A DNA stretch of 42,507 bases. Origin: Escherichia phage glasur. The stretch lies in sequence record MN850583.1. One strand, 5' to 3'. The position numbers and the translations under genes are program-made. Positions 9,961-41,999 of the stretch are shown here, one piece after another (position 1 is the first letter of the stretch; each line of letters starts with the position of its first letter). Below the pieces are notes generated by a model. That model did no database searches. It saw only the letters and a list, made by a program, of their open reading frames with translations, and was not told the DNA's origin.

Positions 9961-10124
9961 AGGGGCGCAGCTATCGCCGTTGCTCTTGCGGTGGGTGCCT
10001 GCTGGTTGAGCAGGTCAAGGGCAAAGCCACTGGCAAACCGCTGGTGATTTATGAATGTGAGAAGTGTGGAGCGAAGCAGTATGGAAGACAAGGTGTATCG
10101 AGCAGCACCCTTAACCCAGCGTGA
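9957..10124 (+). CDS. Possible zinc-ribbon mini-protein (about 55 aa; CSCGGC ... CEKC)
   Basis: GTG-initiated ORF below the track cutoff with two CxxC-type pairs. Overlaps the next ORF in another frame, so it is uncertain. Confidence 0.3.
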   Translation: MKGRSYRRCSCGGCLLVEQVKGKATGKPLVIYECEKCGAKQYGRQGVSSSTLNPA

Positions 10125-10272
10125 ACAAGACACCATCCGGGCGCAGTACCGGAAGGGTGATGCGTTCCGTGGTGAGGAAGCATTGGGTGAGCGTTACAAC
10201 GTGGCACCCGAAGATATCGTGGCTGTGGTTAACTTCACCTATCGTAAGGGGAAACAGAAGCATGATAAGTAA
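10081..10272 (+). CDS. Small protein of unknown function (63 aa)
   Basis: Internal ATG of track ORF 10051..10272 with GGAG about 10 nt upstream. Confidence 0.45.
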   Translation: MEDKVYRAAPLTQREQDTIRAQYRKGDAFRGEEALGERYNVAPEDIVAVVNFTYRKGKQKHDK

Positions 10273-10945
10273 TGCCGAAGCTAAGCGCGTGTGGGCAGAA
10301 GATATCTGCCGTCTGCTGCAATCCGAAGAACTGAACTTCGTGGTTGCCGGGGGAGGGGCAAGGGATACCGCGCTGGGTGTTGAGCCGAAGGACTACGACA
10401 TTGTAGTCTTTGGTTGGGGTGGTGATGTGAGCCGTGTGGCTGGCCGACTGGACTGGCTGGACTCCAGACTGGAGGACTACGCCAAGCAGAACGAGCTGGC
10501 GTATGAGTACATGCCGAGCTATCACGATGCAGCAGAGGGTGGCGACTTCGGCTCCCGTCTGTGGGGTGTGTATAAGATTGGCCCGGTCGATGTGATTATC
10601 AGTAAGTGCGGGTGCTGGTCGCAGGTACTGAACGAGTTCGACTTCAACCTGAACCAGTTCTACTTCCCGTCCAGCATCCCGCGTTACTCCGGCCAGTACA
10701 GCCGCGACCCCGGCGAGTTCATGGCGTACCCGTATGAGCCGAACCTGACTGCCGAAGATGTGCAGTGGTTCCCGGCGCTGGCCAGTCTGGTAGAAAGCTA
10801 CGATGACCTGCTGACTCTCCGTGTCTGCCGACCGGATGCCAGCCTGAGTCGTGTGGCCTACATGCTGGAGAAGCACGAGAAGTATCTGCCAGCCATTGAA
10901 GCATACGTTAATCGTATGCCCGACCACTTAGGTGGCAAAGCATAG
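10262..10945 (+). CDS. Nucleotidyltransferase with Pol-beta-type head domain of the CCA-adding/poly(A) polymerase class (227 aa)
   Basis: Motif FVVAGGGARDTALGVEPKDYDIVVFG matches the GGxxRDxxLGxxxxDxD signature of class II tRNA nucleotidyltransferases. ATG at 10262 with AAGGGGA upstream, inside track ORF 10121..10945. Confidence 0.6.
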   Translation: MISNAEAKRVWAEDICRLLQSEELNFVVAGGGARDTALGVEPKDYDIVVFGWGGDVSRVAGRLDWLDSRLEDYAKQNELAYEYMPSYHDAAEGGDFGSRLWGVYKIGPVDVIISKCGCWSQVLNEFDFNLNQFYFPSSIPRYSGQYSRDPGEFMAYPYEPNLTAEDVQWFPALASLVESYDDLLTLRVCRPDASLSRVAYMLEKHEKYLPAIEAYVNRMPDHLGGKA

Positions 10946-14341: not shown

Positions 14342-15316
14342 ATGAGTAGACTTCAACGCTTACTCCACAATGCAGAGGAACTTGATGACCAGTTTGATGG
14401 TTACGTGTCTGGTCGTATCTTGCTGTGCGATGCTGACTCCACGGTCTACGTCGCGGCAGCAACCACGAAGAACATCGAGACAGCGAAGACACGATTCTGT
14501 TCCGGGGTACTGACCGCCAAGTTCCTCGCCAATGCTCAGTCAGTTCGTATCGAGTTGACCGCTGCGGAGTGTACGAAAGCTGGACGGTACAAGCTGCGTG
14601 GGGCCAAGCTGTACCAAGGCAACCGAGACAAAGACCGCAAGCCCGGTCTGGTCGAGCCGTTGCGTAAAGCAATTGGCCGGAACATGTTCAACGTCCCGGA
14701 TGGTGAGGACTGGTACGTCCACCTGAACTTTGAGTTCGAGGCAGACGATACCTTAATCATGGATGCGTGGACGATTGGCATTAATGATGCAGTAATCTAC
14801 AGCGCGGATAAAGACCTGCGTTGTTGGCCGGGCAGATTCCTTGACCCGTATGACAACAAGGTGCTGGAGCCGTGCGTTGGTATTGGCAGGCTGTGGTGGC
14901 ATGAAACGAAAAGCGACAAGTCGCTGGTCGGCCACGGGCCTATCTTCTTTTGGGCACAGATGTTGATGGGCGACACCGCCGACAACATCGCTGGCGTGAA
15001 GAAGGTTGGGAAGCAGACTGCTTATGATATGCTGGTTGATTATCAAGAGATTGATGATGAATCAGTGGTTGCGGAATTGGTGCTGCGTGAATACATGCAG
15101 CGTGACCAGAACCCGTGGCCGGAGGCAGTGGCGCTGTGGCTGTACCGCACGCCGACCTACTCATTCGCAGCCCACTTGAACACGCTGACCTTGAGCAAGG
15201 AGCTGCGTGTCTGGCTGCATAATAAACTGGGTGAGGAATGGTATGCGGAAAGTGACTGGCGCGACTCTGTTGCAGCTACGGAAGAATGCGATGGGTTGCA
15301 ACTGCCCACTCTGTGA
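14342..15316 (+). CDS. 5'-3' exonuclease (FEN/T7 gp6-like)
   Basis: H3TH-type motif GDTADNIAGVKKVG and acidic clusters. Good GGAGGA ribosome-binding site. Confidence 0.85.
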   Translation: MSRLQRLLHNAEELDDQFDGYVSGRILLCDADSTVYVAAATTKNIETAKTRFCSGVLTAKFLANAQSVRIELTAAECTKAGRYKLRGAKLYQGNRDKDRKPGLVEPLRKAIGRNMFNVPDGEDWYVHLNFEFEADDTLIMDAWTIGINDAVIYSADKDLRCWPGRFLDPYDNKVLEPCVGIGRLWWHETKSDKSLVGHGPIFFWAQMLMGDTADNIAGVKKVGKQTAYDMLVDYQEIDDESVVAELVLREYMQRDQNPWPEAVALWLYRTPTYSFAAHLNTLTLSKELRVWLHNKLGEEWYAESDWRDSVAATEECDGLQLPTL

Positions 15317-15623
15317 TGAGCCGATGGTTGACCTCAAGCTCATGGTGGTTGACCACGACCATGTGACTGGGGAGATTCGCGGTGTCATCTGCCGCTGGTG
15401 TAATGCTCAGCTCGGTAAGGTGGAGAACTCTGCCAACCGAGCGAAGCGCCAGCGCACAGTGGATGACTGGTTGGATAGCGCCATCGAGTGGCGACGTAAG
15501 CAGCACACTGGTCTGATGTATCCGACACATAAGACAGAGGCTGAGAAGAAAGCGGCGGCAGCCGATAGACGTAAAAAGGCAGCAGCAGCTAAAGCGCGTG
15601 CCGTAATCACTAAGGGGAAATGA
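15243..15623 (+). CDS. Endonuclease VII-type Holliday junction resolvase
   Basis: CNCPLCDEP...DHDHVTGEIRGVICRWCN zinc-binding catalytic signature of the T4 endonuclease VII family. The ATG at 15243 (GAGGAA upstream) is preferred over the track's GTG at 15207 and overlaps the exonuclease gene end. Confidence 0.7.
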   Translation: MRKVTGATLLQLRKNAMGCNCPLCDEPMVDLKLMVVDHDHVTGEIRGVICRWCNAQLGKVENSANRAKRQRTVDDWLDSAIEWRRKQHTGLMYPTHKTEAEKKAAAADRRKKAAAAKARAVITKGK

Positions 15624-16747
15624 TGACGAAGTTAAGTAACGCACAGCTCAAGGCAGATATCGCTGAGGGTCTTGGCACCACTGAGATTGCTGAGAAGCAT
15701 GACATGACCACTGGTGCTATTCGATACCGAAAGCGCCAGCTTGCCAAGAGCGGCTGGAGTCCTGAGCACGACATGACCAAGGAAGTGCCGGAGCCATACG
15801 CGGTTAAGGGTACGTCCACGCTGTACGATAAGGACGGCAACGTGGTCATGCAGTGGGTGAAGACTGCGCTCGACCGTGAGCAGGAGCTGGCCCTGCTGCA
15901 AGAAGCTGTGGATGCAATCAGCGAAACCATTACCCCGGAAGTGGCCCGGCCATTCAACGGCGGCCCGGCACCTGCTGAGCTGCTGAACCTGTTCATCCTC
16001 ACTGACTACCACCTCGGTATGCTGGCGTGGTCGGAGGAAACTGGTGATGACTGGGATATGAAGATTGCCGAAGACCTGCTGGTCAAGTGGTTCGCGGCAG
16101 CCATTGCCAGTGCGCCGCCAGCGCAGGTTGCTATCTTCGGACAGCTCGGTGACTTCCTGCACTGGGATGGGTTGGATGCAGTGACACCATCGAGTGGGCA
16201 TGTGCTGGATGCAGACACGCGATTCCAGAAGCTGGTGCGTGTGGCTATCCGGGCGCAGCGCCGTATCATCTCCATGCTGTTGGAGAAGTTCCCGCAGGTT
16301 CACGTAGTGTGTGCCGAGGGCAACCACGATATGGCCAGCTCAATCTGGATGCGCGAGCTGCTGCACGTACTGTACGCCGACGAGCCGCGTGTCACTGTTG
16401 ACCGCAGCCCTGACCCGTACTACTGCTATGAGCATGGCGAGACGGCACTGTTCTTCCACCATGGTCACAAGCGTAAGGCTGAGCAACTGGAGACTGTACT
16501 GGTTGCGAAGTTCCGCGAAGTGTATGGCCGAACCAAACATGCGTATGCACACGTTGGCCACCTGCATCACAAGAAGGTGCTGGAGTCTGCCGTCATGATT
16601 GTCGAGCAGCACCAGACGCTGGCAGCTAAGGATGCCTATGCTTCTCGTGGTGGCTGGCTGAGCGAGCGCAGCGCGAGCGTGATTACTTATCATGCCCGGT
16701 ACGGTGAGGTCGCACGATTCACCATTAGCCCGGAGATGTTGGAGTGA
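15620..16747 (+). CDS. Calcineurin-like metallophosphoesterase (putative DNA exonuclease) with N-terminal helix-turn-helix
   Basis: Metallophosphoesterase motifs ILTDYHLG (DxH), GQLGDF (GD), AEGNHD (GNHD), FFHHGH and VGHLHH. N-terminal LGTTEIAEKHDMTTGAIRYRKRQL resembles a helix-turn-helix. Confidence 0.7.
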   Translation: MMTKLSNAQLKADIAEGLGTTEIAEKHDMTTGAIRYRKRQLAKSGWSPEHDMTKEVPEPYAVKGTSTLYDKDGNVVMQWVKTALDREQELALLQEAVDAISETITPEVARPFNGGPAPAELLNLFILTDYHLGMLAWSEETGDDWDMKIAEDLLVKWFAAAIASAPPAQVAIFGQLGDFLHWDGLDAVTPSSGHVLDADTRFQKLVRVAIRAQRRIISMLLEKFPQVHVVCAEGNHDMASSIWMRELLHVLYADEPRVTVDRSPDPYYCYEHGETALFFHHGHKRKAEQLETVLVAKFREVYGRTKHAYAHVGHLHHKKVLESAVMIVEQHQTLAAKDAYASRGGWLSERSASVITYHARYGEVARFTISPEMLE

Positions 16748-16968
16748 GTAGGACACTGTATGAAGACAGTGTAGTGGAGCTTAAGTCTGATGGCCTCTCG
16801 ATTGACTGGGAGGCCCGGACGCAGGTTCAGCTATACGACGATGGCACCGTCTGCATTTCACAGGACGGCGATGAGGTATGGCTCCCATGGGCCTATGTCA
16901 AAGATATCATCTTTGCTTTGGAGGAAGCGCACGATGCACATGAAAGACACCGTAGTAGTAGACCTTGA
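16744..16968 (+). CDS. Protein of unknown function (74 aa)
   Basis: Track ORF with GTG start overlapping the upstream stop. No internal Met; overlaps the next gene by about 35 nt. Confidence 0.4.
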   Translation: MSRTLYEDSVVELKSDGLSIDWEARTQVQLYDDGTVCISQDGDEVWLPWAYVKDIIFALEEAHDAHERHRSSRP

Positions 16969-17437
16969 CGGCACGCTGGCTGATGGCCGTTGGCGTCTGC
17001 ACCTGCTGCCTCCACCGGAGCGCAGGCATCTGGATGAAGCGTGGGCCGAGTTCAACTTGGCTGGCGCTGACGACCCAGCGTTTCAGGACACGATTGATAT
17101 TGTGAACGCACTGGCCCTCACGTATCGCATTATCATTCTGACCGGACGCGGGGCCGTGGCCCGTGAAGTAACCGAGCAGTGGCTCGACGATAATGGTGTG
17201 GTGTACGACAAGCTCATCATGCGTGAGATTGGCGACTGCCGCAAAGACACTGAGATGAAGCGTGCAGCGCTGGAAGACATTGGCATTGAGAACATCGTCT
17301 GTGCCTTTGATGACCTGCCGCACATCGTGGACTTTATGCGCAGCCTCGGCATCACAGTGTACGAAGTAACCCGGTATGAAGACAACCATGAGTATGTCCA
17401 TGCCAATGCAAAATACGATGGGGATAAAGATGAGTAA
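16934..17437 (+). CDS. HAD-superfamily phosphatase-like protein (167 aa)
   Basis: N-terminal VVVDLDGTLADG carries the HAD motif I DxDGT. ATG at 16934 with GGAGGAA upstream, inside track ORF 16790..17437. Confidence 0.55.
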   Translation: MHMKDTVVVDLDGTLADGRWRLHLLPPPERRHLDEAWAEFNLAGADDPAFQDTIDIVNALALTYRIIILTGRGAVAREVTEQWLDDNGVVYDKLIMREIGDCRKDTEMKRAALEDIGIENIVCAFDDLPHIVDFMRSLGITVYEVTRYEDNHEYVHANAKYDGDKDE

Positions 17438-17966
17438 ACGTGGCGACCACTTCTGCCTGTGCATCGAGCGCGACTACAAAGACGCGCTGCTTAATGAGCT
17501 GCGCGATGCTGGTGTAGTGCTGACATACGACGAGCCTTACGATGTGCCGAACGACAGTCGTGATTACTACACCTGCGTATACAATGGCAGTACCAAAGTG
17601 CTGGTGCTTGAACCATTCGAAGTGCAGGCCGTGGAGAAATCATTCATCCCGGTAGAGCCGGAAGCTGGGCCGGGCGGTATGAAGTATGACGGCGGTAAGC
17701 CACGCATGGCCCTGCTGCTCGACGGCTGCCCGAATGCACTGGAGGCTGTGGCCAGCGTGCTGACCTTCGGCGCTCAGAAGTACGCAGCTCACTCATGGCA
17801 GACTGTGCCGGAAGGTGAGGAACGTTACAAGTCAGCGCTGCTCCGGCACCTGACTGCGGTGGGTAAGGGTGAGGAACTCGACCCGGAATCTGGCCTGCAC
17901 CATCTGGCGCACGCTGCTTGCAATGCACTGTTCATTCTCGAACTGGCTTTAAGGAAAACTAAATGA
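17430..17966 (+). CDS. Putative MazG-like nucleotide pyrophosphohydrolase domain protein (178 aa)
   Basis: C-terminal half (KYDGGKPR...VLTFGAQKY...RYKSALLRHL...ESGLHHLAHAACNALFILE) resembles, from memory, the phage dATP/dGTP diphosphohydrolase (MazG-like) domain. N-terminal half is of unknown type. Confidence 0.45.
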   Translation: MSKRGDHFCLCIERDYKDALLNELRDAGVVLTYDEPYDVPNDSRDYYTCVYNGSTKVLVLEPFEVQAVEKSFIPVEPEAGPGGMKYDGGKPRMALLLDGCPNALEAVASVLTFGAQKYAAHSWQTVPEGEERYKSALLRHLTAVGKGEELDPESGLHHLAHAACNALFILELALRKTK

Positions 17967-18142
17967 CTGCTTTACTTTACGTGATTGCTCTGGCATGGTT
18001 TGTATACTTCACGCTGGCCTGCGTGAGCGCCTGTAAATCGTACAACCTAAGCCACTACCCGGAACGCGCTGGGTCTGCTGGCTTCGTGGTGTGGGTGCTG
18101 CTGGCTGTACTGCCAACGTGGTTCATTTGTTACTTGGCATAG
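17963..18142 (+). CDS. Small membrane protein (59 aa, two predicted transmembrane helices)
   Basis: Below the track cutoff. ATG with AAGGAAA upstream. Hydrophobic LLYVIALAWFVYFTLACV and FVVWVLLAVLPTWFICYLA. Confidence 0.5.
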   Translation: MTALLYVIALAWFVYFTLACVSACKSYNLSHYPERAGSAGFVVWVLLAVLPTWFICYLA

Positions 18143-18147
18143 GAGAT

Positions 18148-18384
18148 ATGATGAGCAGATACCAACGAGCCATTGAGGACACCGTGGTTGAGAAAGGTGT
18201 GTGCGGGGCGTGCCACGGCTGTGGCACATTCACCAGCATGACCATTCGACACGAGCTTGTCCAAACTGAATGTGAAGCCTGTGGTGGCACGGGCGTGACT
18301 GACCCGGCACTGCAACGCTCAGTGCTGCGGGAACAAGGTATGCGCTGCCAAGTGCAGCCGGGCTATGACCAACCAACGGAGTAA
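18148..18384 (+). CDS. Small zinc-finger protein with two DnaJ-type CxxCxGxG repeats (78 aa)
   Basis: CGACHGCG and CEACGGTG motifs. ATG with TAGGAGAT upstream, inside track ORF 18091..18384. Sits immediately upstream of the RNA polymerase gene. Confidence 0.6.
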   Translation: MMSRYQRAIEDTVVEKGVCGACHGCGTFTSMTIRHELVQTECEACGGTGVTDPALQRSVLREQGMRCQVQPGYDQPTE

Positions 18385-20819
18385 TGATGGACTTACTTGC
18401 TGAGCAGATTCGACTGGAAGAAGAAGCGCGAGCCAGACACCGCGAGGGCTGGCTGGATAATATCAGAGAGGCGTTGGCCGCTGGCCGGGCTGGTTCAGTA
18501 CCATTGCTCCAGCGTATGATGGTTGAGGCGTATCCTCAAGTTGAAGCTGCGATGCAAGAACTCCTGAATGAAACTGCCCGTGGTTATGGTGCGCAGTACC
18601 GGACATACATGCGTGAGCTGGGGCCGCGTGCCTGCGCCTCACTCGCATTGAGCATGGCTGTGTCTGGTGCTGCTGCTGAGCAGGCAGTGCTTAACTTGCT
18701 CAAGGATATGGGCAAGGCTCTGATGGCTGAGGTAGTGTACCTTCGGGCCAAGGCAGCCGGGCCTGTGCAGGCTGCTTACATGGCCAAGGTTAAGACTGAC
18801 GTTAAGCGCTCACGTTCCAAGTCAGCTAACCATGTGTACAACAAGGCGAAAGCGTCGGCGGCTAACGTTGGCGTTGAGCTGGATATCCTGCCGCAGCGTG
18901 CGCTCATCACCATTGGTAAGATGATGATGAAGTGCATTGAGCCTACTGGTCTGCTGGTCACTATGCGCGTTGGCGGCAACCACCGTCAGCGTGGCACTGC
19001 GCACTTCGCACTGCATGAAGATGTGCTGGCAACGATGAAAGATTGGATGGACTTGCCACGGGCAGACGGCCTGTGCTGTCCTCCAATGATTATCCCGCCA
19101 GCGCAGATTGCACGCGATGGTCGTAGCGGTATGTGGCACTCTCCGGGGCAGGCGGCCATGTACCGGGCAATCAGTCGCATGAATCACCGAGGCTATCGTG
19201 CGCTGGGTGTTGACCCACTGCCCATCATAGAGCCGTGTATGATGCTCAGCAGCGTTCCGTACCGAGTTAACCCAATGGTACTGGAGTTCCTGAGAACGAA
19301 CCGTACAGGCGTTATGGGGCTGCCTGTGCCACCGCGTGAGCCTAAGCTCCCGTTCACTATCCCGGCAGGCGTCAGCTTCGCACAGTACATTAGCAAGTTC
19401 CCACCCGAAATGCAGCAGCAGATGGAGTCGGAAGCGCACGAGTACAAGGTGAAGACCCGTCTGTATTACAACGAGCTGCGCAAGTTCACGTCACAGATGC
19501 TGGCGCTGAACGGTGCAGTCAAAGAGGCCGAGCGCTATGCGCCATACGATAGGGTATATCTCCCGACTTACGCCGATACGCGGGGCCGAATTTATTATTC
19601 TTCGACCCTTAACCCTCAGTCCATCGACGCGGTGCGAGCGCTGCTCGAACTTGCTGAACCAGTGGCTCTCGGAAGTGAGGGGCTGTTCTGGCTCAAGGTA
19701 CATGTTGCGAATTGTTTTGGATACGACGCCACAGACTTCGACGACCGGGCAGCGTGGACGGACAAAACACTCCCCAGACTACGTGAGGCGTGCCGTCTTC
19801 CAGAGGCATTTGATTCGTTCTGGTCAGAAGCCGATAGCCCTATCTCAGCGTGGGCTGCTGCTGTTGAACTCATTCGAGCTATCGACTCAGGAAGTCCTGA
19901 GACTTATCCCTGCCGAGTGGTTACGCAGTGGGACGCTACATGTTCAGGACTCCAGCACCTCAGTGCGATGCTACGAGATGAGGTTGGCGGTGCTGCTGTC
20001 AATCTTGTCGATAGCGTGGGAAGAAAAGCAGACATATATCTCAAGACGGCAGCAGCGGCGATGCAGGCTCTTGAAGAAAGTGAAGCGGCTGCGCCGACGA
20101 CAATGGGTTCGTGGCTTGTTTCCATCGGCATTGTTCGGGCTATGGCCAAGAAGCCAGTGATGACCTACGTGTATGGGGCAACCCGGCACGGCATGGTTGA
20201 TTACTACTGCCTGTACCTGCGCGAGAACCGGGTCAAGCTGCCGGAGGGCAAGAGCCTGCTGGAGTGTGCTCAGTTCATTGCTGAGTTTATGTGGGCTGCT
20301 ATCCCTCGCGTCGTGCCGAAAGCTGCTGAGCTTATGGCATGGTTGCAGGCTATCGCAGTAGAGGCTGCGAGCATGGGTGAGTACGTGGAGTTCACTGCGC
20401 CGTCAGGTCTGCGTGTGGTCAATCTGTATCAGGCCAGCAAAGAGATTGCGCTGAACAACATCAACCTCATGGGTATCCACGGCATCAAGCTGCGCGAGTA
20501 TCTGGATAAGCCAGACGGTCGCAAGTGTGCCGCTGCGATTGCTCCGAATTTTGTACACGCTATGGATGCCAGTCACATGATGAAGGTTCTGTGGGAGATG
20601 TGGAATAACGGGGTATACATGGTATCCATCCACGACTCGTTCGGTGTAGCGGCAGCTCATGCCGGGCTACTGCACAAGGTCATACGTGAAAAGTTTGTGC
20701 AGATGTATGAGGAATGCGACCCTATTCAGCAACTTGCGTCAGCATATAACCGTGAAGCTCCAGCTCGCGGTAATCTGGACATCCAGCTTGTGAAGAAATC
20801 AAGCAAGTTCTTCTGCTGA
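18384..20819 (+). CDS. Single-subunit DNA-dependent RNA polymerase (T7 RNAP family)
   Basis: 811 aa. [29 protein letters not shown] matches the T7 RNAP [20 protein letters not shown] region, and VSIHDSFG matches catalytic motif C. Located at the end of the DNA metabolism module. Confidence 0.93.
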   Translation: [811 protein letters not shown]

Positions 20820-21796: not shown

Positions 21797-23362
21797 ATGG
21801 CATACGACGCGCAGAACGTCAGCTATGAATCGCTCTGGCAAAAGTACCGGGACAGTAACGTAGTCACCAAGGCTCGTGAGTACAGTCGTTACACGTTGGC
21901 CAAGCTGGTCAGTGAATACGACCGCGCCGAAGTAGACGACATGAACCGCCAGCAGATTACTCGTGACTACCAATCTGTCGGCGCTCTGCTCGTTAACAAC
22001 CTCGTCGCTCGACTGGGTGAGTTCCTGTTCCCGGCATCAGCCCGGTTCGTAAAGCTGAAACTCGATAAGGTGTCTGACCAACAGCGGCAGCAAATGTCCA
22101 AGGTTAATCAGGCACTCATCACTATTGAAAAGGGCATCGTAGACAAAGCCAAAGAGAATGGCGGCTACGCTGACCTGTTAATGACCATTGCCCAACAAGC
22201 AGTCACTGGTAACGCCGCGCTGTACCGCGATATGGAAACTGGAACGTACCGAGTGTACGGGCTGGAATCCTTCGTGGTGCAGCGCGACGGTCGTGGCGTT
22301 GTTACGGACGCCGTGGTCAAAGAACGCATCCAGTGGGATTCCCTCGACAAAGCGTTTCAGGACATGCTGAACGCCAAGGGCTTCCGCTGTGGTGGTAACA
22401 AACGTGTGTGGCTGTACACTCGCGTCCTCCGGGTTCGGAAGGACAGTGGGCTGTATGGCTATGAAGTAACGCAGCAGGTGGGCAACTACCAAGGCTGTGT
22501 CTACACCCCCGGTAAAGATTACTACCCTGAAAAAGTCTGCCCTTGGATTTTCCCAGTGTGGTCTTTGAAGTCTGGCGAGCATTATGGTCGCGGGATTGTC
22601 GAAGACCACGCTGGGGATTTCGCACGTCTGTCGATGCTGTCCGAGCACTCTGCTCTGTACATGCAAGAGGCGCTGCGTGTCCTGTGGATGCTGACTGGTT
22701 CTGGCGGCAACGTCGATGACATTGAATCCGCGCAGACCGGGCAGGTCGTACCTCTCCAGAATGGCACCACGCTGTCTGGTCTTGAGGTCGGGGATTACCA
22801 GAAAGTTCAACAGGCCCGTGACGAAATTAACCAGATTGTGCAGCGACTCGCGCAGGCGTTCATGTACACTGGTGAGTTCCGTGACTCGGAGCGTACCACC
22901 GCAACCGAAGTGCAGCAGGTAGCAACCAGCGCCGAACGTGGGCTGGGCGGCCCGTACTCGATGCAGGCAAAGACCCTCCAGATTCCTCTGGCATATGTCT
23001 TGCTCGCAGAGATTGACGAGTCCTCCGTACCTGACATTGTGGGTGATATCCTGACGCTTCAAGTTGAAGCTGGTCTGGATGCCCTCGGTCGCAGCATCGA
23101 AGCTGAGACGCTGATTCGTGCGCTCTCGGATTCGCAGGCAGCAATGGTTGCTGTCCAAAACATTAACGGCGTTGCCAACGTCATTGACCCGCAGAAGGTC
23201 ATTGAGGTTATCTTCGCTTCCAACGGCGTCGCGCTTGATGACTATCGTAAGTCAGCGCAAGACCTCGCAAATGAAGGTCAGCAAATCGACAGAGCAGCAG
23301 CCGCTGCCGCAGGCGTACAGCCGGGCGCAGTCGATGTAGCGCCGAACGTCGCTCAGATTTAA
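21797..23362 (+). CDS. Head-tail connector (portal) protein, T7 gp8-like
   Basis: 521 aa, at the canonical position before scaffold and capsid genes. GGGAG ribosome-binding site. Confidence 0.8.
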   Translation: MAYDAQNVSYESLWQKYRDSNVVTKAREYSRYTLAKLVSEYDRAEVDDMNRQQITRDYQSVGALLVNNLVARLGEFLFPASARFVKLKLDKVSDQQRQQMSKVNQALITIEKGIVDKAKENGGYADLLMTIAQQAVTGNAALYRDMETGTYRVYGLESFVVQRDGRGVVTDAVVKERIQWDSLDKAFQDMLNAKGFRCGGNKRVWLYTRVLRVRKDSGLYGYEVTQQVGNYQGCVYTPGKDYYPEKVCPWIFPVWSLKSGEHYGRGIVEDHAGDFARLSMLSEHSALYMQEALRVLWMLTGSGGNVDDIESAQTGQVVPLQNGTTLSGLEVGDYQKVQQARDEINQIVQRLAQAFMYTGEFRDSERTTATEVQQVATSAERGLGGPYSMQAKTLQIPLAYVLLAEIDESSVPDIVGDILTLQVEAGLDALGRSIEAETLIRALSDSQAAMVAVQNINGVANVIDPQKVIEVIFASNGVALDDYRKSAQDLANEGQQIDRAAAAAAGVQPGAVDVAPNVAQI

Positions 23363-23374
23363 TTTGGAGATTAC

Positions 23375-24610
23375 ATGTCTGGTGAATACCAACCTACTGC
23401 CGCACCCGCTCCCCAAAACGTACCCGCTGGCCCGACCTATGCTCCCTCTGGTCACAGCGGTAATGATTATGGTGGAAGCCCACAGGTGGTACAGAACCCA
23501 GCGCTCGGACGCTTAGGCACGCCGATTGAACTGCCGCGAGGTGGTGCAACTCCGCAGCCGCAACAGCCGTTCGGTCAACAGCCGGGCCTGATTCCAAATC
23601 AGGAGTACAACCCGTATGCCCAACCGCAGCAGGGAAACCCAAGCCCTTACGCACCCGTACCTCAGCAGAACCCGTATGGTGCTCCGCAACCGCAAAGCCC
23701 GTTTGCGGCACCACCTATTCCGATTAATGGGTATCCGCAACAGGGCTACACGCCTCCGGGCCAAGCGGCTCCGGCACAGCAGCCGGGCTTAGCACCGAAC
23801 AACCCTGCGTATGGCTTCAACCCTTATGGGCAGCAGCCTCAGCAGCAGCAGCAACCACAACAGCAGGCACCTCAGCAGCCGCAGCAGCCTTTCCAGCAGT
23901 TGCAGCAGCAGCATGGCCAGCCTCCGCAGCAGTTCCAGAATCCTAACCTGACAGCAGATAAGCTGGCGGCGCAGGAAGGTGGGCTGACCGCAGAGCAGGT
24001 TGCTCAGATTTTCCCGGACGACACCAGCCGCGCAGTGTTCCAAGGTATGGACACCATTGCCCGTGGCCAGAACATCGACCTGCTTACAGCGTTCGGTTCT
24101 GCCTACGAGCGTCGTGACCCTACTCTGGTGAACGAGCGCTATCTGGCACAGTTCGACCCTCAGACTGTATCCATCCTCAAAGGTCAATTCGGCGCACTGG
24201 TTGCCGCTGGTCAGCAGCGCGATGCTGCAATCGAACAGCAGGTTTACCAGATGGCTGGTGGTCAAGAGCGTTGGGGTCTGGCAGTTCAGGCATTCAACAC
24301 CGCTGCCGACAAAGGCACGATTGATGCTGTAGTAGCGGCTGTGAACTCCGGCGACCCTAATCAGGTACGTCTGGCAGTGAACACCATTCTCCAGTTTGCT
24401 GGTTCCCAAGGGAATATGATTCAGCGTTCTGGACAAAGTTTGACGCCTAATGGTGGCGGTCAAGCACCTCGTGACGTTATGACTAACGAGGCATTCCGTC
24501 AGCATCTTGGCTGGCTTGAGCAGGCGCATCCTGTTGGTTCCCCGGAATACAACAAGCATTACGCCGTACTGGTAGAGCAGCGCCGTCAGGCCAAAGCTCA
24601 AGGTTATTAA
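23375..24610 (+). CDS. Capsid assembly scaffolding protein with an unusually long N-terminal Gln/Pro/Tyr-rich low-complexity domain
   Basis: Position between portal and major capsid genes. C-terminal half looks helical; the N-terminal roughly 190 residues are PQ-rich (QQPQQQQQPQQQAPQQPQQPFQQLQQQHGQPPQQFQ) and encoded by CAG/CCG-rich DNA. Confidence 0.6.
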   Translation: MSGEYQPTAAPAPQNVPAGPTYAPSGHSGNDYGGSPQVVQNPALGRLGTPIELPRGGATPQPQQPFGQQPGLIPNQEYNPYAQPQQGNPSPYAPVPQQNPYGAPQPQSPFAAPPIPINGYPQQGYTPPGQAAPAQQPGLAPNNPAYGFNPYGQQPQQQQQPQQQAPQQPQQPFQQLQQQHGQPPQQFQNPNLTADKLAAQEGGLTAEQVAQIFPDDTSRAVFQGMDTIARGQNIDLLTAFGSAYERRDPTLVNERYLAQFDPQTVSILKGQFGALVAAGQQRDAAIEQQVYQMAGGQERWGLAVQAFNTAADKGTIDAVVAAVNSGDPNQVRLAVNTILQFAGSQGNMIQRSGQSLTPNGGGQAPRDVMTNEAFRQHLGWLEQAHPVGSPEYNKHYAVLVEQRRQAKAQGY

Positions 24611-24631
24611 TTTCTTTCGTAAGGACTTCCC

Positions 24632-25624
24632 ATGGCCGACAACTACTATCAGCCGAATCAGTTCCGTCCACACTGGGGTGGTGCGAACTCTGATAACGAC
24701 ATTCACCTTGAGGTGTATGACCGTGATGTGCAGACCCAGTTCATCTACAACTCCATCTTCCGCAGCGGCCTGACCAACTTCAAGTCTGTTGCGAACCAGT
24801 CCAACACTTGGCGTGGCGACCGTCTCGGCTCCGTGTCTGTGAAGGGCCGTAAGTCTGGTCAGTCTCTGGACAACCAGCCTGTTCGCTCTGAGAAGCTGAT
24901 TGTCACTGTGGATACCGTGTCTTACATCCGTATCCCGATTGACTATCAGGACGACTGGACTGCGCCGGACTTCCGTGCTGAGCTGACCCGTAACATGGGT
25001 ACTGCACAGGCGAAAGCGTTCGACCAAGCGCACGTCATCCAGCTCCAGAAGTCTGCTGACTTCGTTCCTCCGACCTCTCTGGCAGGCGCGTTCAACTCCG
25101 GTATCAAGGAGAAAGTAACGCTGACTGGCACCGTGGCTTCTGAGGAAGACGATGCAAGCGCACTGGTGCATGGTCACAAGAAAGTCATTGAGGCGTTCAT
25201 TCGCCGCGATGCCGACCTTGGCCGTCTGGTAACGCTGATTGACCCGGCGTGGTTCAGCATCCTGCTGGAGCACAAGAAACTGATGAACGTTGAGTTCACT
25301 GGTGGTCGTGGTGTGAACGACTTCGCTATGCGTCGTGTTGCTTACGTGAACGGTATCCGTATCATCGAGAGCAACGCATTCCCGCAGGCAGCAATCACCA
25401 ACCACATCCTCGGTGCCGACTTCAACGTCACCGCCGAAGAAATCAAGCGTAAGATGATTATCTTCGACCCGTCTCTGGCTCTGGTCACTGTCGAAGCCCA
25501 ACCGCTGTTCAACCGCGTGTGGGATGACGAACGTGAACTGACCAACGTTCTGGACAGCTTCCACATGTACACCGTGGGTCAGCGTCGTCCTGACGTGGTA
25601 GGCGTGGTTACTACCGAAGCCTAA
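24632..25624 (+). CDS. Major capsid protein (T7 gp10-like)
   Basis: 330 aa, strong ribosome-binding site, canonical position, and followed by a hairpin as in T7-like phages. Confidence 0.85.
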   Translation: MADNYYQPNQFRPHWGGANSDNDIHLEVYDRDVQTQFIYNSIFRSGLTNFKSVANQSNTWRGDRLGSVSVKGRKSGQSLDNQPVRSEKLIVTVDTVSYIRIPIDYQDDWTAPDFRAELTRNMGTAQAKAFDQAHVIQLQKSADFVPPTSLAGAFNSGIKEKVTLTGTVASEEDDASALVHGHKKVIEAFIRRDADLGRLVTLIDPAWFSILLEHKKLMNVEFTGGRGVNDFAMRRVAYVNGIRIIESNAFPQAAITNHILGADFNVTAEEIKRKMIIFDPSLALVTVEAQPLFNRVWDDERELTNVLDSFHMYTVGQRRPDVVGVVTTEA

Positions 25625-25634
25625 TGGCAAACTC

Positions 25635-25658
25635 GAAGCCCTTCTCACGAGGGGCTTC
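25635..25658 (+). terminator. Hairpin downstream of the major capsid gene (stem GAAGCCC/GGGCTTC, loop TTCTCACGAG); putative late terminator or processing site
   Basis: 7-bp GC-rich stem directly after the capsid stop codon, the position of T-phi in T7. Downstream CTATGATTG is only weakly U-rich. Confidence 0.45.
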
Positions 25659-25680
25659 TATGATTGTCACTGGAGGTTTT

Positions 25681-26229
25681 ATGACTTTACTCGAAGCAGT
25701 TAACATTGTTCTTCGGGCATTGTCGGAGCACACCGTATCCTCGACTGAGATTCGAAACCCGTCCGTTACCCTTGCACTTGACAAGATTAATGTGGCGACG
25801 GAAGAAGTCCTCACCGATGGCTGGTGGTTCAACAATATCCGAATCACCATTCCACGCGAGTCGGATGGTCGAGTCAAATATCCCGCAGACGCACTGAGCT
25901 TCATCCCCGATGGGTTTGAGTGTATTGTGCGAGGCGGGTATCTTTACAACGCGCAATCCCAAACCTTTGTTTTTACTGAGGATGTTCCGGGATTGGTTAC
26001 TTATGATTTGGGGTGGGATGACTTACCGAGTCCTGTTCAACGACTCATTGCATATCAAGCAGCTATCTCAGCTTACGCCGACGACATTGGGGATAACCCT
26101 CCGGCCAGCGTGACAGGCGGCTATGCTATGGCGTTGCAGCAGTGCCAGTCAATCCATACCCGTCAACGTCGATTCAATGCACGCCAGCGTCAGAGCTGGT
26201 GGCGATATGAGAGTGCTCGGAGAGGATAA
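25681..26229 (+). CDS. Tail tubular protein A (T7 gp11-like)
   Basis: ATG at 25681 with GGAGG upstream, inside track ORF 25624..26229. 182 aa; assignment by position and size. Confidence 0.65.
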   Translation: MTLLEAVNIVLRALSEHTVSSTEIRNPSVTLALDKINVATEEVLTDGWWFNNIRITIPRESDGRVKYPADALSFIPDGFECIVRGGYLYNAQSQTFVFTEDVPGLVTYDLGWDDLPSPVQRLIAYQAAISAYADDIGDNPPASVTGGYAMALQQCQSIHTRQRRFNARQRQSWWRYESARRG

Positions 26230-28673
26230 TGCCAGTATACCAAGGCGCTTATAAATCCATCCTCGGCGGCGTGAGCCAGCAGGTCTATACTGACCGCCAG
26301 CTATCGCAGGTTGAGGAACAGGTCAATATGACCTCTGATACCGTGCGTGGCCTGCGTAAACGCCCCGGCACCCGCGACACTAAACTGGTGGACTCCACCA
26401 ACGCCAGTGTCTGGAGCCTTGGTAACTTTGGCCACCTGCGCTTTTACACAACCAACCTTGGATGGGGTGTCACTACCTTCGTGGTCAATACGCTGACCGG
26501 GTACGTCACCTCATTCGTTGAGACTGAGACTGTCCAATTCATGGGGCAGTCCAACTACCTGATTACCTCCAACCCTGACGACATTGTATTCACGACCGTA
26601 GGCAACACGATGTATGTGGCCAACTGTTCGAAGCTACCTGTTTTGCTTGAGAACGAAACGCGAATGAATCCGGGTCGCCGGGGTTACTTTTTCGTTTTGG
26701 CTGGTGCCTACGGCAAGCAGTACACTGTTCGCATTGAGACGAGCGGCGGCGCATACAGCGCCTCGTACACCACCCCGGACGGCACTACCGCTGGTGATGC
26801 TACCAAGGCCACTGCCGAGTACATCATTGGTCAGTTGAAGACTCAGCTCGACACTGCCATTGGCGGCTCTACCGGGCTTGAGGTTGTGCAGACGGACGGG
26901 GCGTACATGTACCTCCAGACGACTGCCGCGTACACAGACCTGAACGTATCCACGAACACTGGCTCAACGTATGCCATCGCATCCAACACCCACAGGGTTG
27001 ACCTGACCACCAAGCTCCCGGCACGTCTGCCGACTCAGGCTGGTGGCTTCATCATGACAGTGGGTGATGACAGCTTTGCGCAATACTTCCAGTGGGATTA
27101 CGCCAATTCGCGCTGGGTGGAGAAGGGTGCCTACGGCTCACCGACCGGGATTAACCCAAGCGGTATGCCGCTGGTATTCAACACGACCAGCACGCTCAAT
27201 CAGCACTCGTTCGCTCAAGGCTCTTGGCCGGGGCGTACTGCTGGCGATGACAAGACCAACGCTATCCCTGCATTCACCGACGCCAATGGCGTGGGCATCA
27301 CTGGGCTGGCATCGTTCCAAGGTCGCCTGATTATCTTCTCTGGCCCGTACATCACCATGGGTTCCAGCGATAAGGATGACCGGACTAACTTCTTCCGCAC
27401 CACTGTGACCCAGTTGCTGGAGAGTGACCGCATTGAGTTCACCGCGTCGAGCTTCGCTGGCGCATCGTTCCGGTATGGCATCCCGTTCAACTCTGACCTG
27501 ATTCTGGCCAGTGAAGAACATCAGGCCGTCATCCCCGGACGTAACCAGATTCTGTCACCGAGCAACGCCACGGCTGTACTCACCTCGACGTACCAGATGG
27601 ACACTGGCGTAGCACCGACCACCTCTGGCCGCAGCCTGTATTATTCGTACCCGCGCTCGAACAGCTCGTTCTCCATCAAGGAGATGCTGCCGTCCGGCTA
27701 CACGGATTTGCAGTATGTGAGTCAGGACGTGACCGACCATCTACCAACCTATCTGGAAGGGGCAAACAGCTACATCTCTGCCAGCACCACGAACAACATC
27801 GTCGTGTTTGGCTCGACCACTGAGCGCTCGACGCTGTACGTGAACGAGTACCTCTGGTCGGGGGATGAGAAGGTAATGTCCTCGTGGCATCGCTGGGAGC
27901 TGTACGGCACCATCCACGCAGCGTGGTTCGTCCGTGAGGTTCTGGTAGCGCTGGTTGAGCAGAATGGCCACATGCACATGCTCACGCTGTCTATGCGTGA
28001 TTCACCAGACCCAACTGACCCAGCACGATTCCTGCCTGCGATGGACTATGCGCAGAACATGACCGTGACCAACCCAAGCACGGATAGCTCGTACATCCAG
28101 TTCGCTGCCGATGGCGTGCAGAAAGCGCTATGGGATATTATTCAGGCCCGGTATCTGGCCGCTGGCAATACTGACTTCATGACCACGGTTGTGCCGTCCG
28201 GCAACTACATTGGTGCCGAGGTGGGTATCAAGTCAGTGGACACCACGAACCGCCGCCTGTACCTGCAACCGTCTTATGGCTCCACCACCCTGTGGGTTGG
28301 CCTGCGCTTCACCGCGCTGTTCAGTCCGACGCCGCCGCGCATCTTCAATGGTGACGGCTCGTACATGGACGTGAACAAGATGGTCGTGATGTTCTACAAC
28401 TTCACCCTGCGGTACACCAGCCTGTTCAATATCACGGCGACTGACCGGGGAGCATACGACGCCTACAACATTGAGTCCAGCCCGATTCGTTACACCAGTA
28501 AGGAACTCGGATTGGAATCTGCAATGTTGGCGAAACGTGCGCACCTGAAAGTTCGCATGGGCCTTGAGGTCGAATCCAGCAGCATGGTCGTTGATTCGTC
28601 TACGGCTGGCGACCTGAATATTCAGGGGCTGGGTTATTACGTCAAGTTCTACAATCGCACTCGGAGAATTTAA
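26229..28673 (+). CDS. Tail tubular protein B (T7 gp12-like)
   Basis: 814 aa at the canonical position. GGAGAGGA ribosome-binding site. Confidence 0.75.
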   Translation: MPVYQGAYKSILGGVSQQVYTDRQLSQVEEQVNMTSDTVRGLRKRPGTRDTKLVDSTNASVWSLGNFGHLRFYTTNLGWGVTTFVVNTLTGYVTSFVETETVQFMGQSNYLITSNPDDIVFTTVGNTMYVANCSKLPVLLENETRMNPGRRGYFFVLAGAYGKQYTVRIETSGGAYSASYTTPDGTTAGDATKATAEYIIGQLKTQLDTAIGGSTGLEVVQTDGAYMYLQTTAAYTDLNVSTNTGSTYAIASNTHRVDLTTKLPARLPTQAGGFIMTVGDDSFAQYFQWDYANSRWVEKGAYGSPTGINPSGMPLVFNTTSTLNQHSFAQGSWPGRTAGDDKTNAIPAFTDANGVGITGLASFQGRLIIFSGPYITMGSSDKDDRTNFFRTTVTQLLESDRIEFTASSFAGASFRYGIPFNSDLILASEEHQAVIPGRNQILSPSNATAVLTSTYQMDTGVAPTTSGRSLYYSYPRSNSSFSIKEMLPSGYTDLQYVSQDVTDHLPTYLEGANSYISASTTNNIVVFGSTTERSTLYVNEYLWSGDEKVMSSWHRWELYGTIHAAWFVREVLVALVEQNGHMHMLTLSMRDSPDPTDPARFLPAMDYAQNMTVTNPSTDSSYIQFAADGVQKALWDIIQARYLAAGNTDFMTTVVPSGNYIGAEVGIKSVDTTNRRLYLQPSYGSTTLWVGLRFTALFSPTPPRIFNGDGSYMDVNKMVVMFYNFTLRYTSLFNITATDRGAYDAYNIESSPIRYTSKELGLESAMLAKRAHLKVRMGLEVESSSMVVDSSTAGDLNIQGLGYYVKFYNRTRRI

Positions 28674-28675
28674 AT

Positions 28676-29410
28676 ATGGGTTGGGCAGCTTTTGCTAAAG
28701 CTGGTGCCGACGCCACGAACTCTTTCATCACCACCTATGCTCAGGGACGAGCAGAACGTGCGCAGATGAAAGCTGTGCAGGCAGAGAACGAACGCCTGAA
28801 CAAGCAGACGTGGCAGGCAATGGGCCAGCGCATCAACACCGTCAATCTCCAGCGTGGCCTACTCCGGCAGCAAACTGGCACCGACCTGTACAACATCAAC
28901 AAGGAAGCTAACCGGGCAGCAGGTGCCAGCATCAACAACGCCGCCGCCGCTGGTATTGAAGGTGCGTCGGTTGACGAATCAGTCAACGATATCAGTCGTC
29001 AGAATCAGGAAAGCCAAGCGCAGACCCGGTTCAATGAGCAGATTCAGGAGATGAATCTGGACACGAGCATTGAGGATATTGTGAACACGGCAGTCGCCGC
29101 GCAGCGATACTCTCAGAAACCTGCGAGCAACAGCATGATTGTTGGCCGCGCCATCGGCGTGTCTGCAATGCAGTTCGCTTCCAGCCTCGCGCAGACCAGC
29201 TTCGACTACATGCCTACTGAGGGTGCCAAAGGCACAGGTACTCAGGGTGGTAGCGGATTGGGTGGCCTGTCCGGGAACACTGGTGCGAGCACGGTTCAGC
29301 TCGGCACTACCAATTGGATGCAGAAAGCTGGGGAGTTTGACCCGGTTCCTGCTCAGTACAGTTCTAATCGCTACACGGGCTACAGCTCCGGTAGCTTGTT
29401 TGGGGGCTAA
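28676..29410 (+). CDS. Internal virion (core) protein, small
   Basis: 244 aa, Gln/Asn/Ala-rich with Gly-rich C-terminus. Position corresponds to T7 gp13/gp14. Confidence 0.6.
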   Translation: MGWAAFAKAGADATNSFITTYAQGRAERAQMKAVQAENERLNKQTWQAMGQRINTVNLQRGLLRQQTGTDLYNINKEANRAAGASINNAAAAGIEGASVDESVNDISRQNQESQAQTRFNEQIQEMNLDTSIEDIVNTAVAAQRYSQKPASNSMIVGRAIGVSAMQFASSLAQTSFDYMPTEGAKGTGTQGGSGLGGLSGNTGASTVQLGTTNWMQKAGEFDPVPAQYSSNRYTGYSSGSLFGG

Positions 29411-29412
29411 TC

Positions 29413-35100: not shown

Positions 35101-35213
35101 AGCAGGCAGTGTCCGGCGCTCGTAAAACGGCAGGTAACATCATCCAAGCTATCCCACTCATCTCAATCGTGCCGGGCGTCCGAGCACTCAACGAAGCAGT
35201 TAAGGGTGAATAA
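32106..35213 (+). CDS. Large internal virion (core/ejection) protein, T7 gp16-like
   Basis: 1035 aa, position and size. I could not confirm a lytic transglycosylase motif by eye. Confidence 0.7.
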   Translation: MITQESLDKFMAPKQGANAPTLVIPAPVKAETLSTPLQDATRQGAVEQFDKMQELEATPIATALSASVKNWDTTQLFDAAFNKPVFQADPDFHPNEALQNVQFPVTEDDRTFLFKSKSMDEFNWRTQQLQEMRERTQLAHTAPVMNAVLQFADPLYLATDLLSMGAGTALKLGRLGTAAVGAASTAATMTAVGNEARPVSQNEIIFAAALHGAATTAFYRPAAAPARRLDELSPEEFAAEMQRRNGIDPNNPPQFDPNNAMSPLAMSLGFGRRGAMETDEVPESIRAAAQRGLDLARRGEQTNPKRPFLEWSLFKSFSQHSDEASALAGRLLDDPLNPNMTSAAAIQRETQARFGVLLNQYEDTLRHALTTDGWSNIRRFRDPVGYRRAQQEFEAAVRLELDKRMIDNNFRGANPNVANAADRLGEYSRAVGRELERKGMVEPGFVEKNPYYYPRRMNVTKVEQAEQLLGKKPFMKQMTTAVQRGIGTDRPTANVIAHAMVERARRKGYGIDNSGMIINKEGRDELLEIIENSKGLDEAAKARASALLRESGSDAGRPSMLKSRINIDMMHQLGPNLQVRDLFDDSITSMMDAYNRRITGRLALHEAGLGTDAERAAAREALAKSIKDGMARRQALEQYDNIMAYYQGSPVGEEMPQFMRQLSALTQATGLAASGLWQLVEYGTMMQRFGAVNTFRAMMRTIPEARALFKQMRVTTKEGRQLALDAEEALTAAVASDIRMRPIMQHYEDMFSADKSPWVMRLEHARDATMFINMQKYIHFHQTRTNAALVMQTLRKAAEGDAKAIAAMKTYGANDALLADIRKQVGTHGTKPDAWDEGVFNRSRIVMMNAMDDAIVRARVGELPAFAEFSTLGKFLFTFRRFVAATHNKTLVGTWNREGARGMATLMAYQYPLAMMATAANNVISGKAFSDPETMAPNKLAGQALNYLGAIGFASEFTGVLTGQQRSFGAPGLLFLDRAYGVAGAATSAAGGVLTGDTEQAVSGARKTAGNIIQAIPLISIVPGVRALNEAVKGE

Positions 35214-37585: not shown

Positions 37586-37594
37586 GGAGAAACC

Positions 37595-37900
37595 ATGGCA
37601 TCCGTGAACAAGCAGCTCGATGGGCTGCACCGGATGCTGGTGGAGTATCTGTCCGACCGCTTGGCCGACGCCCGTAGAAAAGATGAGAACGGTAATATCA
37701 TCGAACCTATGGCGGCGGCTGAGCTGTCCGTGCTTCGCCAGTTCCTGAAAGACAACGGCATTCAGGCTGATAAAGACCACGCTGACGACCTGCTCGCGCT
37801 GCAAGAACAGCTCAACAACGAGAAGACCGAGGCTGGCCGCAAGGATATCATGACTGCTGCCATCAACTCAATCGCAGAAGATAGCGGGATGATGCACTAA
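37595..37900 (+). CDS. Terminase small subunit (T7 gp18-like)
   Basis: 101 aa helical protein immediately upstream of the large terminase, overlapping it by TAATG. Confidence 0.55.
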   Translation: MASVNKQLDGLHRMLVEYLSDRLADARRKDENGNIIEPMAAAELSVLRQFLKDNGIQADKDHADDLLALQEQLNNEKTEAGRKDIMTAAINSIAEDSGMMH

Positions 37901-40331: not shown

Positions 40332-40342
40332 TAGGAGTTCTT

Positions 40343-40528
40343 ATGGCCTTATCTGCATCTACCGCAGCCGAACGCGCCGAGTTCGTGGCAGCCTGTAATA
40401 TGGCAGCCAAGTACCTGAACGTTTGGGTTGAGGACGGTTACTTCGACACGACCAACACTGCTCTGATTGCCTACTATCAGACCTTCGTTACCCGTGTCTC
40501 TAACGCCCTTACTGCGCTGACGAACTAA
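40343..40528 (+). CDS. Small protein of unknown function (61 aa)
   Basis: ORF track. AGGAG ribosome-binding site. Confidence 0.6.
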   Translation: MALSASTAAERAEFVAACNMAAKYLNVWVEDGYFDTTNTALIAYYQTFVTRVSNALTALTN

Positions 40529-40539
40529 CGGAGTAACAT

Positions 40540-41916: not shown

Positions 41917-41999
41917 GGGTATCCGAAAGCTGACACAATGAACAGGCCGTGGGTGCAATACCCCGGCTTGAAAATTGAACGTTTATGCGTGGGCCTCCC

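Follow-up and report, generated by a model that had tools for sequence, protein, structure and literature searches.

Between the nuclease genes and the RNA polymerase gene of Escherichia phage glasur (MN850583.1) lie three genes for hydrolases, and their position raises the question of what these enzymes contribute to the phage and whether they act as a unit. The stretch of DNA analysed, called the window here, has 42,507 nucleotides and is nearly the whole genome of this phiKMV-type podovirus of the genus Bonnellvirus (Autographiviridae). The genes, numbered 1 to 3 (15620-16747, 16934-17437 and 17430-17966), are on the + strand, like all window features described below, between the genes for endonuclease VII and the phage RNA polymerase. 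In the initial annotation, made from the letters alone, they were three consecutive genes for a metallophosphoesterase with a helix-turn-helix (HTH), a HAD phosphatase with a DLDGT motif, and a MazG-like pyrophosphohydrolase-type domain fused to an N-terminal domain of no known family. Profile searches against Pfam and PHROGs, the check proposed there, gave family matches far beyond chance. The answer we consider probable is that the trio consists of three separable accessory enzymes of a middle DNA-metabolism operon, which jointly process DNA ends and control nucleotide supply.

The three open reading frames (ORFs) lie where they had been placed, as judged from the ORF list, from Shine-Dalgarno sequences (AAGGGG ahead of 15620, GAGGAAG 6 nt ahead of 16934 and GGGGA 5 nt ahead of 17430) and from relatives, since the start sites agree with the annotation of the phages usur and aldrigsur. 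By megablast, Escherichia phage usur is 94.9% identical to window 15207-18400, and further matches to this segment were RZ4, ROV85, Kc261, other 'sur' phages, J8-65 and Lidtsur; the records inspected were usur, aldrigsur, J8-65 and Lidtsur, all Autographiviridae of the genus Bonnellvirus. Substitutions relative to usur, aldrigsur and J8-65 pile up at third codon positions in every gene (against aldrigsur, 6/2/47 differences by codon position in gene 2 and 18/17/92 in gene 1), indicating real genes under purifying selection. The genes of the first half of the window are all on the + strand. Primase, helicase, nucleotidyltransferase, DNA polymerase, a phrog_862 protein, 5'-3' exonuclease and endonuclease VII precede the trio, and it is followed by a 59-aa membrane ORF, a 97-aa zinc-ribbon 'Q-like' ORF and the single-subunit RNA polymerase (18384-20819). 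Stop and start codons overlap as ATGA between endonuclease VII and gene 1, as GTGA between gene 1 and a 74-aa ORF, and as ATGA between gene 3 and the 59-aa ORF; the junction of the 74-aa ORF with gene 2 measures 35 nt, and genes 2 and 3 overlap by 8 nt. No promoter- or terminator-like site was found on the + strand between 15.0 and 18.4 kb. Given the overlapping codons and the lack of such an internal site, the segment from endonuclease VII through the 59-aa ORF is a single translationally coupled operon. A conserved 74-aa ORF at 16744-16968 was missed in the initial annotation; because it separates gene 1 from gene 2, the trio is not strictly consecutive.

Gene 1 encodes a protein of 375 amino acids whose PHROGs match is phrog_704, 'DNA repair exonuclease' (E 7e-145), followed more weakly by phrog_284, 'exonuclease' (2e-14). 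All five metal- and phosphate-binding motifs of metallophosphoesterases (D129xH131, G177D178xxH181, G234N235H236D237, H280-H283 and G313H314xH316) are invariant in 60 homologues. In an AlphaFold2 model (predicted local distance difference test score, pLDDT, 80.7) the chain begins with a three-helix HTH (residues 7-43, at 15638-15748, with helices 7-15, 20-26 and 31-43), continues with a beta-hairpin (60-84) and a linker helix, and ends in the binuclear metallophosphoesterase core (residues 121-375, at 15980-16744), which has the beta-sandwich fold of these enzymes. Homologues match the Pfam families HTH_23, HTH_8, HTH_1, GerE and Sigma70_r4_2, and the predicted HTH-metallophosphoesterase is thereby borne out. 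The closest folds are the nucleases Mre11, SbcD and PolD-DP1, at 13-17% identity; a PDB search by sequence, profile included, gave no matches. We infer that gene 1 belongs to the Mn2+-type binuclear metallophosphoesterases, and nuclease activity is predicted for it. The family is large, with more than 5000 database clusters and members in 2041 of 50,697 GenBank phage records (about 4%). At 40-65% identity it spans several phage backbones, namely T1-like Drexlerviridae, Jedunavirus and Jersey-like phages, and it occurs also in Vibrio and Campylobacter phages. In high-GC lambdoid contigs its place is the nin region, with NinB/DUF6378/NinG-like genes on one side and the Q antiterminator on the other. 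In 26 such lambdoid loci (e.g. L046:1852-2286) a DUF6378 protein of about 136 aa is encoded some 1 kb ahead of the metallophosphoesterase. In Jersey-like siphoviruses (Salmonella phage SE479, 3097-4846) the tail genes are interrupted by a moron-like island on the opposite strand, made up of the HTH-metallophosphoesterase gene and two small ORFs.

Gene 2 encodes a PNKP-type HAD phosphatase of 167 amino acids. It matches Pfam PF25109 (HAD_PNKP) with 58.0 bits (cut-off 27.6, E 1.5e-15) over profile positions 2-139 of 143, and phrog_415 with E 1e-55. Its motifs, D10-L-D12-G-T14, T70-G71-R72, K109 and D126-D127, are invariant in 16 diverse phage homologues save for T70, which is Thr or Ser; a cap segment, RLHLLP...W..FN, is family-specific and conserved in the same 16. 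The HAD phosphatase with a DLDGT motif could therefore be assigned specifically to the PNKP-phosphatase family. No P-loop 5'-kinase domain is present in the protein, which consists of the phosphatase domain only. Elsewhere in the window no P-loop kinase, RNA ligase or DNA ligase was found either, the sole convincing Walker A motif being that of the helicase. Since the kinase domain is missing, the names 'polynucleotide kinase' and '5' kinase/3' phosphatase' carried by relatives in GenBank overstate gene 2, which, judged by its sequence, is a stand-alone 3'-phosphatase-type enzyme of the PNKP family.

The PDB sequence matches of gene 2 bring in a different possibility, in which the substrate is RNA. 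The best are phosphatase domains of Pnkp1 (4xrp, 4e-8), which belongs to a bacterial RNA-repair system, and next comes T4 polynucleotide kinase (5uj0, 1ltq), the repairer of PrrC-cut tRNA. Among established healing enzymes are 2',3'-cyclic phosphodiesterases of the metallophosphoesterase type (PMC2190708, PMC3675462), and the same operon holds a nucleotidyltransferase (10121-10945) with the class-II CCA-adding/poly(A)-polymerase head motif GGGARD...PKDYD. As a counter-defence, gene 1 might then open 2',3'-cyclic phosphates (compare CthPnkp, lambda-phosphatase-type), gene 2 strip the 3'-phosphate, and the nucleotidyltransferase or a host ligase restore tRNAs that host nucleases have cleaved at the anticodon or the 3' end. 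However, the window lacks a 5'-kinase and an RNA or DNA ligase, the HTH on gene 1 is of the DNA type, and the nucleotidyltransferase lies 4.7 kb away beside the DNA polymerase gene. Outside the podoviruses, moreover, the partner of these two genes is a deoxynucleoside monophosphate (dNMP) kinase, not a ligase or nucleotidyltransferase. We regard such tRNA healing as quite improbable.

Gene 3 encodes 178 amino acids and matches PF18909 (dGTP_diPhyd_N, formerly DUF5664) with 116.9 bits (cut-off 27). The model (pLDDT 86) consists of an SH3/KOW-like beta-barrel (residues 1-67, at 17430-17630), a disordered linker (68-83) and the four-helix DUF5664 domain (residues 84-178, at 17679-17966), a predicted deoxynucleoside triphosphate (dNTP) pyrophosphohydrolase module. 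Forty columns of the PF18909 core are invariant, including K85, K90, R92, FGAxKY, HSW, RH and DxESGxxHLAH. Neither Pfam MazG (PF03819) at E <= 1 nor the PDB, even with a 65-sequence profile, was matched by sequence; the best fold match of the model was AF0060, which belongs to the all-alpha NTP pyrophosphohydrolase superfamily. Experimental evidence on relatives comes from the DUF5664 protein of Arthrobacter phage Wayne, which, when purified, converts dATP, dUTP and dGTP to dNMP and pyrophosphate (PPi) with a kcat of 0.48 s-1 for dATP (NAR 2026, PMC12884076). Pyrophosphohydrolase activity on dATP and dGTP is shown for a DUF5664-DUF550 fusion from Acinetobacter phage SH-Ab 15497, which with the Wayne protein makes up the only two with demonstrated activity, and no enzyme assayed on ribonucleoside triphosphates in that study was active on them (PMC12884076). 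The Wayne protein (ALY10775.1) is 46% identical to gene 3 over the conserved core (E 8e-13). PF18909 and the Wayne homologue thus uphold a pyrophosphohydrolase-type domain, but the comparison with MazG fails at the level of sequence.

The N-terminal domain of gene 3 had been described as being without a known family, and it proved to be an orphan: a HMMER scan of 1.84 billion representatives returned its own cluster and one spurious low-complexity match to an Ig-repeat protein, and structure prediction gave the SH3-like barrel. It is lineage-restricted. In relatives of 102-240 aa it is swapped for other small beta domains or absent, the C-domain being 75-95% identical. N-domain and linker diverge much more quickly than the remainder of the protein. 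Against usur (window 17430-17680 versus L001 8224-8523), the N-domain is 77% and the C-domain 99% identical, the usur protein being 16 aa longer; in J8-65 and Lidtsur the N-domain is different or absent. Apparently, the domain is exchanged among close relatives, and it is probably a targeting module.

Two other readings were considered and rejected. PHROG 5033/2252 and GenBank labels suggest an endolysin or an RNA-polymerase inhibitor, but PF18909 is the sole domain of the protein. Labels reading 'endolysin' or 'endolysin; inhibits RNA polymerase' are attached to many DUF5664 proteins, and an example from Vibrio phage K133 (L167:6911-7282) contains only PF18909; the endolysin label looks like a propagated mis-annotation. 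The second was that of a phage with a Z-genome (2-aminoadenine). No homologue of PurZ, DatZ or dUTPase was found in the window by tblastn or among the PHROG matches of the scanned ORFs, and Wayne PurZ0 and DutZ-DmtZ gave at best E 0.18 in tblastn against it. Since the window has no PurZ or dUTPase homologue, gene 3 acts in a phage with ordinary DNA, and its substrate and purpose must differ from those of the Wayne enzyme. Fragments of DUF5664 proteins 88-89% identical to that of gene 3 (P0026, P0031) have been deposited as proteins of Cutibacterium acnes on contigs of 512-552 bp and are probably phage contamination of assemblies.

All-alpha NTP pyrophosphohydrolases are also known as 'house-cleaning' enzymes (PMC2238974), and in Autographiviridae the DUF5664 gene is immediately upstream of the RNA polymerase gene. 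Together with the behaviour of the metallophosphoesterase as a mobile accessory gene, for example amid the tail genes of Jersey-like phages, this could suggest a role against host defence: gene 1 would cleave the cyclic (oligo)nucleotides of CBASS, Pycsar, Thoeris or type III CRISPR, and/or gene 3 would destroy alarmones or chain terminators (viperin ddhNTPs) that poison the phage RNA polymerase. Yet no sequence or fold match was specific to known anti-signalling enzymes, an HTH fusion would be unexpected on a small-molecule phosphodiesterase, the enzymes of PMC12884076 assayed on ribonucleoside triphosphates were inactive, and the neighbours are consistently genes of DNA and nucleotide metabolism. 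A function of this kind is decidedly improbable. Among the roles initially proposed, manipulation of the dNTP pool agrees with the characterised homologue (PMC12884076) and repair of nucleic-acid ends with the PNKP-phosphatase and Mre11-like matches; for degradation of alarmones or cyclic nucleotides no support was found.

Whether the trio is a unit was addressed by IMG/VR neighbourhood surveys, one anchored on each gene: 84 loci for the metallophosphoesterase (80 from IMG/VR and 4 GenBank relatives) and 80 each for DUF5664 and HAD. With the metallophosphoesterase as anchor, HAD and DUF5664 followed in the same order in 9 loci and HAD alone in 2; a DUF5664 gene lay within 1.4 kb in 7 lambdoid contigs, and the rest (about 60) had neither. 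DUF5664 was accompanied by both partners in 3 loci and stood in unrelated contexts in 62; in another 8 of the 80, from other Autographiviridae with an RNA polymerase of only about 30% identity, HAD was directly upstream without a metallophosphoesterase. Around HAD, 36 of 80 viral loci had the metallophosphoesterase directly upstream. The next gene downstream was DUF5664 in 19 of the 80, 17 of these with a phage RNA polymerase homologue, and a P-loop kinase was encoded within 1.2 kb downstream in 38 and farther downstream in others. HAD followed by DUF5664 is common in Autographiviridae. Metallophosphoesterase followed by HAD recurs on unrelated backbones, in Bonnellvirus and LIMEzero-like phages, in Jedunavirus (49% and 50% identity) and in T1-like Webervirus. 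In Klebsiella phage Skenny (T1-like) and VLCpiM12a (Jedunavirus) the order is metallophosphoesterase, HAD, dNMP kinase, the first two being 41-50% identical to those of the window. The siphovirus kinase in the third slot is phrog_139, 'deoxynucleoside monophosphate kinase' (E 1e-41 to 4e-47), a PDB search being uninformative, and it has no homologue in the window. A split PNKP, with this P-loop gene after HAD as the polynucleotide kinase, was rejected, as PHROGs give a dNMP kinase. The first two genes are therefore a mobile two-gene cassette whose third slot holds a dNMP- or dNTP-acting enzyme; since the dNMP kinase and DUF5664 both act on dNMP or dNTP, this slot points to nucleotide metabolism. 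The cluster does recur with its three genes in the same order, but it is not obligate, for the genes also occur separately and in other combinations, and the metallophosphoesterase and DUF5664 can each work alone.

Could the three genes then be unrelated passengers, together only through the phiKMV-type packing of middle genes in one operon, with gene 1 perhaps a protein phosphatase or a DNA-bound regulator like lambda NinI? Each gene is found without the others, 62 of the 80 DUF5664 loci and about 60 of the 84 metallophosphoesterase loci having neither partner, and the lambdoid metallophosphoesterase belongs to the nin region, closely followed by the Q antiterminator. Set against this, at least three unrelated backbones keep metallophosphoesterase and HAD in this order, tightly spaced or overlapping, with proteins about 50% identical; unless linkage is selected for, such a recurrence is difficult to account for. 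In some lambdoid loci (cluster 20) a separate NinI-like phosphatase is found beside the metallophosphoesterase of the gene 1 type, and the motifs of gene 1 are GDFLH/GNHD, not the PPP-type GDxVDRG/GNHE. We consider the passenger explanation unlikely.

In the processing of DNA ends and nucleotides that we favour, the HTH would tether gene 1 to DNA for Mre11/SbcD-like cutting or resection of ends. Its substrate might be host DNA, attacked together with endonuclease VII and the 5'-3' exonuclease, whose neighbouring genes give a context for a role at DNA ends, or else intermediates of replication and recombination. Gene 2 could act as a 3'-phosphatase of the T4-PNKP type, converting 3'-phosphate ends or 3'-phosphorylated nucleotides to 3'-OH via an aspartyl-phosphate intermediate; ends handed over from gene 1 would thus be unblocked for polymerase, ligase or more exonucleolysis. 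A precedent for a metallophosphoesterase nuclease needing a 3'-phosphatase is P. putida MPE, which leaves mixed 3'-PO4 and 3'-OH ends (PMC7826289). Gene 3 would convert selected dNTPs (e.g. dUTP or a surplus purine dNTP) to dNMP and PPi, cleaning or rebalancing the pool.

Several points weigh against this proposal. The gene 1 protein itself is below the Pfam Metallophos threshold, with no match at E <= 1; PF00149 is matched by 28 of 60 close homologues (best E 2.7e-5). No Mre11 capping domain is present, the model stopping at the metallophosphoesterase core with its extra domains N-terminal, and there is no ORF for an SMC-like Rad50/SbcC in the window. No member of the HTH-metallophosphoesterase family has been assayed, literature searches having given no experimental work on phiKMV-type or T1-type metallophosphoesterases. 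HAD is often missing where the metallophosphoesterase is present, for example in lambdoid nin regions and Jersey-like phages, and HAD and DUF5664 in turn occur without the metallophosphoesterase; as the genes are found apart, the coupling is facultative. Finally, a dNTP-destroying enzyme seems at odds with salvage. A bolder version, which we think rather unlikely, would see the metallophosphoesterase and the kinase-less phosphatase of T1-like phages, Jedunavirus and Bonnellvirus as a widespread, so far unassayed two-enzyme cassette that makes or handles and then heals 3'-phosphate or 2',3'-cyclic-phosphate ends, either feeding host nucleic acid to dNMP kinase and pool-control enzymes or undoing defence nicks; DUF5664 would then remove a toxic nucleotide made by a defence system, and not canonical dNTPs.

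Of the smaller genes nearby, the 74-aa ORF has a GTG start within the stop codon of gene 1 and is annotated in usur, aldrigsur and J8-65 (84% amino acid identity, codon-position differences 10/3/28). It has a sub-threshold SH3-like IN_DBD_C match (20.6 bits versus a cut-off of 21). As a steady partner of the metallophosphoesterase it was rejected, having no homology to the small flanking ORFs in SE479, VLCpiM12a and Skenny. The 59-aa hydrophobic ORF (17963-18142; annotated in usur and aldrigsur, 78-90% amino acid identity) belongs to the same operon, as its start overlaps the DUF5664 stop. It overlaps by about 50 nt with the 97-aa CxxC zinc-ribbon ORF (18091-18384; phrog_6060, 'anti-termination protein Q-like', E 3e-13), and the RNA polymerase gene comes directly after the pair; the gene 1 family also closely precedes a Q antiterminator in lambdoid contigs. 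The nucleotidyltransferase (274 aa, phrog_1614) gives weak PcnB/PolyA_pol matches, overlaps the DNA polymerase start (10932) with its 3' end and is kept in Bonnellvirus and LIMEzero-like relatives. An NCBIfam search gave no useful names. Over the whole window, GC skew is consistently positive, about +0.1, over the early and middle genes as far as about 22-23 kb (1-23000) and near zero over the structural genes (23000-42507), though the major genes are all on the same strand.

All three families are already known and annotated, if imprecisely, in GenBank relatives, and the finding is real but ordinary; the trio overturns nothing in current understanding. Added here are the precise family assignments together with the missing kinase, the swappable orphan SH3-like N-domain, the fold link to AF0060 and the cassette pattern across phage families. 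In each family, the corrected labels apply to between hundreds and about two thousand phage records of GenBank: what is named 'polynucleotide kinase' is here a phosphatase only, and third-gene labels such as 'endolysin; inhibits RNA polymerase' and 'putative phosphodiesterase' become DUF5664 dNTP pyrophosphohydrolase. A cassette whose third member alternates between dNMP kinase and dNTP pyrophosphohydrolase offers a concrete, testable approach to the recycling of host DNA and the tuning of the dNTP pool by small lytic phages, and many phages of Klebsiella, E. coli and Salmonella that are candidates for therapy encode these enzymes.

Compared with known systems, gene 2 shares with T4 PNKP (PseT) and bacterial Pnkp1 the DxDxT acyl-phosphatase, the HAD_PNKP family and all catalytic motifs intact, but it has neither the P-loop 5'-kinase nor a partner ligase in the genome, and its cap segment is its own. 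Mre11, SbcD and PolD-DP1 carry a C-terminal capping domain, in place of which gene 1 has an N-terminal HTH and beta-hairpin. The all-alpha NTP pyrophosphohydrolases (MazG, dimeric dUTPase, HisE, AF0060) have a canonical EExxE...ExxD metal motif, which the invariant residues of gene 3 do not reproduce. The Wayne protein resembles gene 3 in having an N-extension followed by a C-terminal PF18909 (Wayne residues 98-195) and in being encoded in a replication and nucleotide-metabolism region; in contrast, Wayne is a Z-DNA maker in which PurZ0 and DutZ-DmtZ adjoin the DUF5664 gene, and the N-domains are unrelated. The arrangement as a whole resembles the cassette of T1-like Drexlerviridae and Jedunavirus: orthologues of genes 1 and 2 stand there in unchanged order and just as closely spaced. 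It differs in that their third slot holds a dNMP kinase instead of a dNTP pyrophosphohydrolase, and in the additional 74-aa ORF inserted in the window.

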